From: Escherichia coli
GTDB taxonomy: Bacteria > Pseudomonadota > Gammaproteobacteria > Enterobacterales > Enterobacteriaceae
NCBI RefSeq assembly: GCF_044324785.1
Contig: NZ_CP172130.1
Strand: one strand, 5' to 3'
Length of the DNA stretch: 44,355 nt
The notes below the pieces were generated by a model. It did not search any database and was not told where the DNA came from. It saw only the letters and a program-made list of their open reading frames with translations. The translations under genes were made by a program, and so were the position numbers. Positions 12,405-15,184 of this stretch are shown here, piece after piece. The number at the start of each line of letters is the position of its first letter. The stretch's first letter is position 1.

Positions 12405-12449
12405 ACTTGACCTGATAGTTTGGCTGTGAGCAATTATGTGCTTAGTGCA
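12405..12449 (-). other. Remnant (about 45 bp) of class 1 integron 3'-conserved segment, truncated by IS26
   Basis: Reverse complement reads GCACTAAGCACATAATTGCTCACAGCCAAACTATCAGGTCAAGT, the start of the 3'-CS directly after an attC core GTTAGAT; abuts the IS26 end. Confidence 0.7.
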
Positions 12450-12493
12450 TCTAACGTCAAAATCAGCGGCGCGTTTTTATGCGTCCGCTGGAT

Positions 12494-13315
12494 TTACTTG
12501 TTGTGCGGCGTCGCAGACTCATTGAGCAACCTTTTTGCCTGCGCAATTACAGTTCTCGGAAGCTCGATATTCAGAGGTTCTGTCACGCTCTTGAACAATT
12601 CGAGACTCCACGTCCACGTTTGATGATAGGCTGCACATAGTGCTCTTGGTTCTGCACTGCTTGTGCATGCCAGATAGCGATTATACGAGTCCTCCGAGAT
12701 ATCCTTTTCGAGCGCGCGTGAAGGTGTCGGCCAGTGGTCTGTTGCCCCTTCGTGGAGTCGAACCAGCTTGAGTAGGTTTTCATGTGCTTTGCTGAGCAAA
12801 GCCCAGGCGCGAGCGTACTCTCCCCGATTTAAAAGATTGGCCCCAAAGAGCATCAGGCTGATGAGGTTCAACACAAGCCCTTCCACCAGCGGCGCGCCTT
12901 CACGTATCGGGGGACCGCCCACGAGAGCGCTTGCGTACCTTGACAACTCTCCTGATCGGTCCAACAAAACAGCCGCCTCAAGCGAGGGAAACCACCCATA
13001 GCCTTGCCAAGTGGAAATGACCGGTATGTCCGATTTTCGCATGAAATGGAATTCACCGCGAATGCCGTTTTCAAAAAGTGCGGTGTGGTGGCCGAAGTCG
13101 TCCGGAAAGTAAGCAGCAACCGGACTTACGGCATTAAGCCACGAGCGCTGATCGAAATTTTCAAAATGGTCATCCTGGATGAACACTGCGAATTCGATAT
13201 CAGAGAACTCGTCACCCTCTCCGATAGCAAATGAGCCGAACATCAATGCCGCGATTATTCGTGCATCCTCATGACAACCTTCCTTGAAGAGTTCGATCAT
13301 TTTCAGTTGAAGCAT
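12494..13315 (-). CDS. lnu(F): Lincosamide nucleotidyltransferase gene cassette
   Basis: 273-aa protein recognised as Lnu(F)/LinF-type; cassette position between the aadA2 attC and the 3'-CS junction. Confidence 0.8.
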   Translation of the reverse strand: MLQLKMIELFKEGCHEDARIIAALMFGSFAIGEGDEFSDIEFAVFIQDDHFENFDQRSWLNAVSPVAAYFPDDFGHHTALFENGIRGEFHFMRKSDIPVISTWQGYGWFPSLEAAVLLDRSGELSRYASALVGGPPIREGAPLVEGLVLNLISLMLFGANLLNRGEYARAWALLSKAHENLLKLVRLHEGATDHWPTPSRALEKDISEDSYNRYLACTSSAEPRALCAAYHQTWTWSLELFKSVTEPLNIELPRTVIAQAKRLLNESATPHNK

Positions 13316-13389
13316 AGAAATATCCTTTTATTGAAGCCACAGATTATGAGGAAAGGTATACGCAGATTTTTGTTTTTTTTCGTCAGCAC

Positions 13390-13445
13390 AACGCCGGAGT
13401 TAAGCCGCCGCGCGTAGCGCGGTCGGCTTGAACGAATTGTTAGAC
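13390..13445 (-). other. attC recombination site of the aadA2 cassette
   Basis: Reverse complement reads GTCTAACAATTCGTTCAAGCCGACCGCGCTACGCGCGGCGGCTTAACTCCGGCGTT, an imperfect palindrome typical of aadA attC. Confidence 0.8.
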
Positions 13446-13446
13446 A

Positions 13447-14238
13447 TCATTTACCAACTGACTTGATGATCTCGCCTTTCACAAAGCGAATAAATTCTTC
13501 CAAGTGATCTGCGCGTGAGGCCAAGTGATCTTCTTTTTGTCCCAGATAAGCTTGCTTAGCTTCAAGTAAGACGGGCTGATACTGGGCAGGTAGGCGTTTT
13601 ATTGCCCAGTCGGCAGCGACATCCTTCGGCGCGATTTTGCCGGTTATTGCGCTGTACCAAATGCGGGACAACGTAAGCACTACATTTCGCTCATCGCCGG
13701 CCCAGTCGGGCTGCGAGTTCCATAGCTTCAAGGTTTCCCTCAGCGCCTCGAATAGATCCTGTTCAGGAACCGGGTCAAAGAATTCCTCCGCTGCCGGACC
13801 TACCAAGGCAACGCTATGTTCTCTTGCTTTTGTAAGCAGGATAGCTAGATCAATGTCGATCATGGCTGGCTCGAAGATACCCGCAAGAATGTCATTGCGC
13901 TGCCATTCTCCAAATTGCAGTTCGCGCTTAGCTGGATAACGCCACGGAATGATGTCGTCGTGCACAACAATGGTGACTTCTACAGCGCGGAGAATCTCGC
14001 TCTCTCCAGGGGAAGCCGAAGTTTCCAAAAGGTCGTTGATCAAAGCTCGCCGCGTTGTTTCATCAAGCCTTACGGTCACCGTAACCAGCAAATCAATATC
14101 GCTGTATGGCTTCAGGCCGCCATCCACTGCGGAGCCGTACAAATGCACGGCCAGCAACGTTGATTCCAGATGGCGCTCAATGACGCTTAGCACCTCTGAT
14201 AGTTGGTTCGAAATTTCGATGGTCACCGCTACCCTCAT
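13447..14238 (-). CDS. aadA2: Aminoglycoside 3''-adenylyltransferase (streptomycin/spectinomycin resistance) gene cassette
   Basis: Protein from MRVAVTIEISNQLSEVLSVIERHLESTLLAVHLYGSAVDGG... matches AadA2; the N-terminal extension in the ORF track is read-through into attI1. Confidence 0.9.
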   Translation of the reverse strand: MRVAVTIEISNQLSEVLSVIERHLESTLLAVHLYGSAVDGGLKPYSDIDLLVTVTVRLDETTRRALINDLLETSASPGESEILRAVEVTIVVHDDIIPWRYPAKRELQFGEWQRNDILAGIFEPAMIDIDLAILLTKAREHSVALVGPAAEEFFDPVPEQDLFEALRETLKLWNSQPDWAGDERNVVLTLSRIWYSAITGKIAPKDVAADWAIKRLPAQYQPVLLEAKQAYLGQKEDHLASRADHLEEFIRFVKGEIIKSVGK

Positions 14239-14386
14239 GATGTCTAACTTTGTTTTAGGGCGACTGCCCTGCTGCGTAACATCGTTGCTGCTCCATAACA
14301 TCAAACATCGACCCACGGCGTAACGCGCTTGCTGCTTGGATGCCCGAGGCATAGACTGTACCCCAAAAAAACAGTCATAACAAGCC
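14239..14386. promoter_or_regulatory. attI1 region of class 1 integron, including a P2 promoter with the GGG insertion
   Basis: Reverse complement contains TTGTTATGACTGTTTTTTTGGGGTACAGTCTATGCCTCGGGCATCCAAGCAGCAAGCGCGTTACGCCGTGGGTCGATGTTTGATGTTATGGAGCAGCAACGATGTTACGCAGCAGGGCAGTCGCCCTAAAACAAAGTTAGAC. Confidence 0.8.
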
Positions 14387-15184
14387 ATGAAAACCGCCAC
14401 TGCGCCGTTACCACCGCTGCGTTCGGTCAAGGTTCTGGACCAGTTGCGTGAGCGCATACGCTACTTGCATTACAGCTTACGAACCGAACAGGCTTATGTC
14501 CACTGGGTTCGTGCCTTCATCCGTTTCCACGGTGTGCGTCACCCGGCAACCTTGGGCAGCAGCGAAGTCGAGGCATTTCTGTCCTGGCTGGCGAACGAGC
14601 GCAAGGTTTCGGTCTCCACGCATCGTCAGGCATTGGCGGCCTTGCTGTTCTTCTACGGCAAGGTGCTGTGCACGGATCTGCCCTGGCTTCAGGAGATCGG
14701 AAGACCTCGGCCGTCGCGGCGCTTGCCGGTGGTGCTGACCCCGGATGAAGTGGTTCGCATCCTCGGTTTTCTGGAAGGCGAGCATCGTTTGTTCGCCCAG
14801 CTTCTGTATGGAACGGGCATGCGGATCAGTGAGGGTTTGCAACTGCGGGTCAAGGATCTGGATTTCGATCACGGCACGATCATCGTGCGGGAGGGCAAGG
14901 GCTCCAAGGATCGGGCCTTGATGTTACCCGAGAGCTTGGCACCCAGCCTGCGCGAGCAGCTGTCGCGTGCACGGGCATGGTGGCTGAAGGACCAGGCCGA
15001 GGGCCGCAGCGGCGTTGCGCTTCCCGACGCCCTTGAGCGGAAGTATCCGCGCGCCGGGCATTCCTGGCCGTGGTTCTGGGTTTTTGCGCAGCACACGCAT
15101 TCGACCGATCCACGGAGCGGTGTCGTGCGTCGCCATCACATGTATGACCAGACCTTTCAGCGCGCCTTCAAACGTGCCGTAGAA
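14387..15184 (+). pseudogene. intI1: Class 1 integron integrase intI1, truncated at the 3' end by IS26
   Basis: Translation [53 protein letters not shown]... matches IntI1 until ...QRAFKRAVE, where the IS26 end begins. Pc inside the gene looks like the weak variant (TGGACA ... TAAGCT). Confidence 0.85.

Follow-up and report, generated by a model that had tools for sequence, protein, structure and literature searches.

An IS26-bounded segment with class 1 integron anatomy and an aadA–lnu(F) cassette array in Escherichia coli

The DNA analysed here, hereafter the window, is a 44,355-nt stretch of Escherichia coli contig NZ_CP172130.1. Within it, a segment spanning exactly 12405–15184 lies between two 820-bp copies of the insertion sequence IS26, designated B and C, and is with high probability a class 1 integron whose two ends have both been lost to IS26. 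An earlier reading made from the letters alone, without database searches (the sequence-only reading), had outlined a truncated intI1, attI1, two cassettes with recognisable attC sites and a stub of the 3′ conserved segment (3′-CS), with IS26 on both sides. Its coordinates are exact, as the gap between the two IS26 copies measures 2,780 bp, and it was right in each main element, including the clipping of both segment ends by IS26. The promoters PcW and P2, attI1, the aadA cassette, the lnu(F) cassette and the 3′-CS stub are all on the minus strand, and intI1 is on the plus strand. The segment and its two borders are laid out as follows.

11585–12404, minus strand: IS26 copy B, 820 bp, abutting the 3′-CS stub
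12405–12454, minus strand: 3′-CS stub, 50 bp, an exact match to TTAGATGCACTAAGCACATAATTGCTCACAGCCAAACTATCAGGTCAAGT, abutting IS26 copy B
12506–12449, minus strand: attC site of the lnu(F) cassette, 58 bp; its R″ core GCACAAC complements the first 6 nt of the cassette, TTGTGC
13391–12455, minus strand: lnu(F) cassette, 937 bp, with coding sequence 13315–12494 (273 aa)
13445–13386, minus strand: attC site of the aadA cassette, 60 bp; its R″ core GTCTAAC complements the first 6 nt of the cassette, TTAGAC
14247–13392, minus strand: aadA cassette, 856 bp, with intact coding sequence 14238–13447 (263 aa)
13921–14088, minus strand: aadA1-type patch, aadA nt 151–318, defined by 22 diagnostic sites in a five-way alignment
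14282–14244, minus strand: 12-codon open reading frame (ORF), ORF-11-like, MLRSRAVALKQS, with GGAG upstream, ending 5 nt before the aadA ATG
14219–14294, minus strand: attI1 and cassette leader, matching Rfam RF02912 (AAC_AAD_leader) at 74.3 bits (gathering score 56)
14355–14383, minus strand: P2 in the active form with the GGG insertion, TTGTTA-17 nt-TACAGT, spacer ending in GGGG (pattern match)
14474–14502, minus strand: Pc, weak variant PcW, TGGACA-17 nt-TAAGCT (pattern match)
14387–15184, plus strand: intI1 truncated by IS26, 798 of 1,014 nt, ending after codon 266
15185–16004, minus strand: IS26 copy C, 820 bp, abutting the truncated intI1

The integrase gene of a class 1 integron is present, but truncated. 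Its product matches the NCBIfam model NF011946 (‘integron integrase’) over positions 1–266 of 337 with 642 bits, and the remaining gene differs from full-length intI1 by a single nucleotide, in codon 32 (Arg here, Pro in the comparator). The missing 3′ end had been read correctly from the letters. The fragment lacks the last 71 residues of IntI1, among them H277, R280, H303 and Y312; a complete catalytic set (R146, K171, H277, R280, H303 and Y312) was not found in it, as it stops at residue 266. In agreement, the Pfam catalytic-domain model Phage_integrase aligns no further than position 118 of 172, and the NCBI annotation pipeline PGAP labels the gene ‘missing C-terminus’ in identical DNA. 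The intI1 frame reads on into IS26, yielding a 319-codon ORF (14387–15346, plus strand) of 266 IntI1 and 53 IS26-derived residues. Because intI1 is truncated, the element is a remnant rather than a functional integron.

This truncation bears on the claim, made in the sequence-only reading, that the array is frozen for want of a functional integrase. In cis the claim stands: the integron’s own integrase cannot rearrange the cassettes, because the 266-aa IntI1 fragment is incomplete and the catalytic Tyr312 is among the residues lost. It does not extend to action in trans, since the sites are intact, or to mobility through IS26. With attI1 and both attC sites preserved, an IntI1 provided by another integron in the cell could still act on them, taking cassettes out or adding new ones. 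By analogy with known IS26 units, the whole unit can presumably also be moved by IS26, dead integrase notwithstanding.

The attI1 site is complete. Its sequence, as far as the crossover G at 14248, shows no difference from a full integron, and it meets the first cassette as ...CCCTAAAACAAAG|TTAGAC at 14248/14247, the G|TT crossover of a class 1 integron. RF02912, described as a ‘putative aminoglycoside riboswitch / attI site’, is matched over its full length upstream of aadA. Together with the sequence identity to a complete integron, this match bears out the attI1 assignment that had been made by eye; as a sequence match it indicates the presence of attI1 and says nothing for a response to a ligand. 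The ORF-11-like frame lies within the same region. Frames of this type in attI1 can aid translation of the first cassette.

Both cassettes, of 856 and 937 bp, possess an attC site with R″ and R′ cores and a foldable bottom strand. The bottom strand of the aadA attC forms a hairpin of −16.1 kcal/mol (z = −2.4) with two bulged bases, and that of the lnu(F) attC, which contains a bulged base, has a folding energy of −11.9 kcal/mol (z = −3.5). The opening six bases of each cassette are complementary to the R″ core of that cassette, the pattern to be expected of units circularising at G|TT. R″ complementarity and bulged hairpins in both cassettes thus agree with the earlier view of an intact array with recognisable attC sites.

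Streptomycin and spectinomycin are adenylylated by AadA enzymes; Lnu(F) acts as a nucleotidyltransferase on lincosamides. The aadA product contains the Pfam domains NTP_transf_2 and AadA_C and scores 504 bits against the NCBIfam equivalog model ANT_3pp_I (NF012157; cut-off 375), which places it in the AadA family of ANT(3″)(9) enzymes. It falls under the NCBIfam allele cut-offs for AadA1 and AadA3, matches Protein Data Bank (PDB) entry 7uy4 (E = 3e-151), and is present as the exact protein on 477 contigs. For the second cassette, the name lnu(F) given in the sequence-only reading is exact. Its product matches the NCBIfam allele model linco_LnuF (NF000119) over positions 1–273 of 273 with 606 bits (cut-off 450), and in identical DNA the gene is called lnu(F) at 100% by AMRFinderPlus and linG at 100% by CARD. 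The protein also contains the Pfam domain LinB-like_C and matches LinB in the PDB (3jyy, E = 2e-50); the exact sequence is found on 996 contigs, and the gene has its own Shine–Dalgarno sequence, AAGGA, before the ATG. A lincomycin phenotype had been proposed as a check. This test would be uninformative in wild-type Enterobacterales because of intrinsic lincosamide resistance, as described for S. enterica (PMC11047700).

At the far end of the array, the 3′-CS remnant had been estimated at about 45 bp. A stub is indeed present, and its length is 50 bp (12454–12405) rather than 45. In a complete integron (comparison locus L005, intI1-dfrA12-orfF-aadA2-qacEdelta1-sul1), the same sequence, TTAGATGCACTAAGCACATAATTGCTCACAGCCAAACTATCAGGTCAAGT, stands before qacEdelta1. 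As had been stated earlier, neither qacEdelta1 nor sul1 is present among the ORFs of the segment, which retains only the first 50 bp of the 3′-CS; a 3′-CS of the clinical type, with qacEdelta1-sul1, was accordingly not found in the segment ORF list. A scan for sigma-70 promoters across 12300–15300 returned one strong promoter-like site only, TTGACG-16 nt-CATAAT (12433–12460, minus strand, 10/12), which straddles the lnu(F) attC and the start of the 3′-CS. This site points to IS26 and away from the cassettes; in complete integrons it would face qacEdelta1.

Cassette expression would be driven from promoters in the retained 5′ conserved segment (5′-CS). The hexamers and spacings of Pc and P2 fit the definitions of PcW and P2 in Table 1 of Jove et al. 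2010 (PMC2791841), both with 17-nt spacers, and the segment thereby shows Pc inside intI1 with the optional P2, as in class 1 integrons. The sequence-only reading had identified exactly this pair, a weak Pc (TGGACA/TAAGCT) and a P2 activated by the GGG insertion. No extended −10 motif (TGN) is present at Pc, where TCG stands before TAAGCT. A relative with the PcH1 variant differs from the Pc of the segment by one base, and integrons without P2 (L005 and L003, the latter described below) have a 14-nt spacer with a single G at the P2 site. PcW has been reported to accompany the R32/H39 form of IntI1 (PMC2791841), and the IntI1 fragment encoded here is R32/H39. In reporter assays P2 is 7-fold stronger than PcW, and integrons with PcW-P2 are “mainly driven by P2” (PMC2791841), in agreement with the reliance on P2 that had been proposed for this array. 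As Pc is the weak variant and P2 is activated by GGG, P2 is the expected main promoter and should supply most of the cassette transcript. The GGG insertion also breaks the LexA site of the intI1 promoter (PMC2791841), which is moot here because the integrase is truncated. Transcription would run along the minus strand, with aadA placed directly after attI1 and behind the ORF-11-like frame.

The identity of the aadA allele required closer attention. It departs from the AadA2 of dfrA12-orfF-aadA2 integrons (WP_001206356.1) by 24 nt and 10 aa, confined to nt 8–318, and from AadA22 (WP_032491824.1) by 44 nt and 19 aa, confined to nt 357–791. In a five-way alignment including aadA1, nt 151–318 resemble aadA1 and aadA22, and not aadA2, at 22/22 diagnostic sites, and nt 17–138 and 357–791 are of the aadA2 type. 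On this alignment the allele is a mosaic of an aadA2 backbone with an aadA1-type patch. Its name depends on the database: for identical DNA, AMRFinderPlus reports aadA2 (99.62%) and CARD aadA17 (98.86%), and PGAP and the source databases call the exact protein only ‘AadA family’. The earlier designation as aadA2 therefore holds as the nearest NCBI name but not as a canonical allele, given the 10 aa that separate it from WP_001206356.1 and its mosaic structure. The sequence-only reading had itself named a different aadA allele as an outcome that would count against it; alignment does yield a non-canonical allele, with the resistance class unchanged. Identity with aadA22, the name used in the literature for a 2,780-bp unit of this kind, was considered and rejected, as 19 aa differ.

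The element is already described and very common, as judged by sequence matches. Perfect matches to all 2,780 bp (100% identity) occur in numerous plasmids from Escherichia, Salmonella, Shigella and Acinetobacter, so that the resemblance to a class 1 integron, as gauged by these records, is not due to chance. Coverage of the segment reaches 80% or more in at least 271 records. Together with both flanking IS26 copies, the 4,420-bp unit recurs at 100% identity in E. coli plasmids and chromosomes; among 5,426 complete genomes, 157 contain 80% or more of it. The unit is identical in NZ_CP043286, NZ_CP104480 (Salmonella IncX1) and NZ_CP053724, among others (100% over 2,780 and 4,420 bp), where the differences lie in its surroundings alone. 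The unit of NZ_CP019443 is near-identical (5,129 bits, against 5,134 for exact matches), and its integron has been listed as In1363 ‘lnu(F), aadA17’ (PMC11117327).

An IS26-bounded delta-intI1-aadA22-lnu(F) unit, likewise of 2,780 bp, has been reported in pYUHAP5-2, p160070-CTXM (MG288677) and pNDM33-1 (MN915011) (PMC7843705). It shares with the segment the cut after nt 798 of intI1, the 50-bp 3′-CS, PcW-P2, attI1, the attC sites and lnu(F). A representative of this aadA22 version (L004) is identical to the segment at 2,735 of 2,780 positions. Of the 45 differences, 44 are substitutions in aadA nt 357–791 (19 aa) and one lies in lnu(F); that 3′ two-thirds of aadA is aadA2-type here and aadA1-type in the aadA22 version.

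More distant relatives differ in their promoters and borders. The complete integron L005 has a 5′-CS that departs from that of the segment only by R32P in intI1 and by the GGG insertion, and, unlike the segment, it has an intact 3′-CS with qacEdelta1 and sul1. KF921555 has been described as intI1-aadA2-linF-IS26 with PcH1 (PMC4129628). In both L005 and KF921555, intI1 is full-length, Pc is the PcH1 variant with no P2, and the aadA product is canonical AadA2, 10 aa away from the present one; they have the same attI1 and an aadA attC of the same type. In a further IS26-bounded aadA2-lnu(F) element (L003, NZ_JBTHVZ010000002.1), 603 nt of intI1 remain, with PcH1, no P2 and canonical AadA2, and IS26 removes the 3′ end of lnu(F) together with its attC, leaving a coding sequence of 813 rather than 822 nt. 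These boundaries are independent of those in the window; capture of the aadA–lnu(F) pair by IS26 has therefore happened at least twice.

The mosaic probably arose by homologous exchange between aadA2-type and aadA1/aadA22-type cassettes, with the IS26 boundaries remaining fixed. A broader proposal would be that an IS26-bounded unit, though its integrase is dead, continues to vary through homologous exchange within aadA, such that the allele with the 168-bp patch and the aadA22 version are recombinants of one ancestral unit; we regard this as improbable. If it were true, the mosaic might differ in streptomycin/spectinomycin activity or in expression, and IS26-bounded remnants would be sites of allele shuffling rather than static relics. 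The value of the locus is practical only, and it opens no new biological question. For surveillance tables, the database-dependent name of aadA (aadA2 or aadA17, alongside the aadA22 sister version) is of consequence.

The remnant is part of a larger IS26 array within a transposon, for which the following features apply in addition to copies B and C.

7312–18004, no strand assigned: Tn2-like (Tn3-family) transposon carrying blaTEM-1, with perfect inverted repeats of 38 bp and a 5-bp TATAC duplication
10262–10269 (left) and 16005–16012 (right), no strand assigned: 8-bp target site duplication AAATATCG, flanking the whole IS26 array
10270–11089, minus strand: IS26 copy A, 820 bp, outer left end of the array
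11090–11584, plus strand: IncN backbone fragment, 495 bp, with the 3′ end of an EcoRII endonuclease gene and a 65-aa ORF

Copies A, B and C are mutually identical and in the same orientation, with tnp26 on the minus strand. They end in the 14-bp terminal inverted repeats GGCACTGTTGCAAA, and their transposase matches NCBIfam transpos_IS6 with 275 bits (PGAP on identical DNA: ‘IS26 family transposase’, WP_001067855.1). The three copies delimit a 5,735-bp array that sits in tnpA of the Tn2-like transposon, which measures 4,950 bp without it. The internal flanks of the IS26 copies, CTTTACAG, ACCGGTAA, ACTTGACC and CCGTAGAA, are all different, and once 10270–16012 is removed, the joined flanks match 392 bp of the uninterrupted tnpA of pDKX1-TEM-52 exactly, the site being tnpA nt 82–89. 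Direct IS26 copies at the ends and between the segments, with no internal duplication, are the structure of an array of translocatable units (TUs).

The 495-bp fragment is 100% identical to R46 (NC_003292) and to many plasmids, where it is annotated ‘restriction endonuclease’; the 65-aa ORF in 11090–11584 has no Pfam match. The same fragment directly adjoins the IS26-bounded remnant in MG288677 and CP083499, an adjacency pointing to an IncN source of the unit. The IS26-bounded segment next to the unit in NZ_CP104480 contains aac(3)-IId, not the 495-bp IncN fragment. A search of a plasmid collection for the junction of Tn2 tnpA with IS26 gave, among the matches listed, only joined two-piece matches.

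TU incorporation beside an existing IS26 has been described as conservative, orientation-specific and free of duplication; the targeted reaction depends on Tnp26, does not need RecA and occurs at high frequency (PMC4196232). As far as can be read from the letters, the array shows no structural difference from the translocatable units and pseudo-compound transposons of Harmer, Moran and Hall 2014 (PMC4196232), and it likewise has no duplication at the internal junctions. The unit would first have resided in an IncN plasmid, where an IS26 event may have taken 495 bp of IncN backbone along with it. The IS26-linked segments would then have been incorporated beside an IS26 already inserted in Tn2 tnpA. 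In this scheme the mobile form would be the remnant with one IS26, a TU inserted conservatively by Tnp26 next to the resident copy. Such TU insertion would explain the three identical direct IS26 copies, the lack of duplication at the inner pair and the single outer AAATATCG duplication.

Several observations weigh against the account given so far and need to be set beside it. The generic sigma-70 and terminator scan of 12300–15300 did not flag Pc or P2, which fall below its 9-of-12 rule, and because it missed them the promoter assignment rests on exact matches to the published hexamers. The scan carries no information on how the cassettes are expressed. The cassettes are resistance genes for streptomycin/spectinomycin (aadA2-like) and lincosamides (Lnu(F)) by prediction from sequence. 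The exchange in aadA may have run from the aadA22 version to the present allele or the reverse. PGAP flags the identical aadA of CP053724 as ‘frameshifted’. Finally, RecA-dependent recombination would give an end product that cannot be told apart by sequence from TU insertion by Tnp26.

RecA-dependent recombination is the strongest competitor. By that route the array would have formed through recombination between IS26 copies on different replicons, with cointegrate formation and resolution. The copies are 100% identical over 820 bp and thus offer ample homology, and the IncN fragment beside the remnant indicates that the unit came from an IncN context already holding IS26. That Tnp26 incorporation works without RecA, and at high frequency (PMC4196232), is not decisive against RecA events here. 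We consider the RecA route rather unlikely, though a serious contender, and favour insertion of a TU by Tnp26.

Far less likely is the arrival of IS26-remnant-IS26 (11585–16004) as a compound transposon, by replicative transposition of the pair. Two identical direct IS26 copies do flank the segment, and the 4,420 bp recur in many replicons. The 8 bp outside the B–C pair differ, however, with ACCGGTAA on the left and AAATATCG on the right, and the only duplication spans all three IS26 copies. IS26 also forms cointegrates and does not move as a cut-out compound element (PMC4196232). Identical 8-bp repeats at 11585 / 16004, the mark of an insertion of the B–C pair as a compound transposon, were looked for and are absent.

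The ‘frameshifted’ label raises the question of whether aadA is a pseudogene, which is highly improbable. The aadA ORF runs uninterrupted for 792 nt (263 codons), without gaps and colinear with AadA2 and AadA22. AMRFinderPlus reports it as full length (99.62%), and the exact protein recurs on 477 contigs. PGAP gives intact aadA1 the same 839-nt ‘frameshifted’ call. We observed this behaviour in window-identical DNA and in ordinary aadA1 (comparison loci L002 and L009): intact 263-codon aadA genes are turned into 839-nt ‘frameshifted’ pseudogenes that run 47 nt into attC. The call looks like a systematic annotation artefact. Misassembly, with the remnant really lying elsewhere, can be dismissed as scarcely credible: the 820-bp repeats exceed short-read length, but the IS26/5′-CS and 3′-CS/IS26 junctions occur in hundreds of independent complete records, the adjacency of IncN fragment, IS26 and remnant recurs in MG288677 and CP083499, and the outer 8-bp duplication rebuilds tnpA exactly.

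The host transposon holds ORFs for tnpR and blaTEM-1, with which the annotation of relatives agrees. The backbone around it is IncX1, as in pDKX1-TEM-52 (38,611 bp) and NZ_CP104480, and the window appears to be a whole circular IncX1 conjugative plasmid. pDKX1-TEM-52 carries blaTEM-52 where the window has blaTEM-1. The locus thus adds one more host, a Tn2-like transposon on an apparent IncX1 conjugative plasmid, to those of the disseminated IS26-borne aadA–lnu(F) unit.

Some further observations concern the plasmid. The length of the window (1–44355) equals that of pDKX1-TEM-52 (38,611 bp) plus 5,743 bp, the array with its duplication, to within 1 bp. Just past the right end of the Tn2-like element, Rfam RF02891 (AgrB antisense RNA) is matched at 18107–18194 on the plus strand with 68.8 bits, and a DinQ-like type I toxin (dqlB) is annotated in related plasmids just outside the other end of the element. 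The plasmid backbone also contains a 110-nt inverted repeat (1359–1468 and 40329–40438), 87% complementary, whose arms lie 38.9 kb apart.

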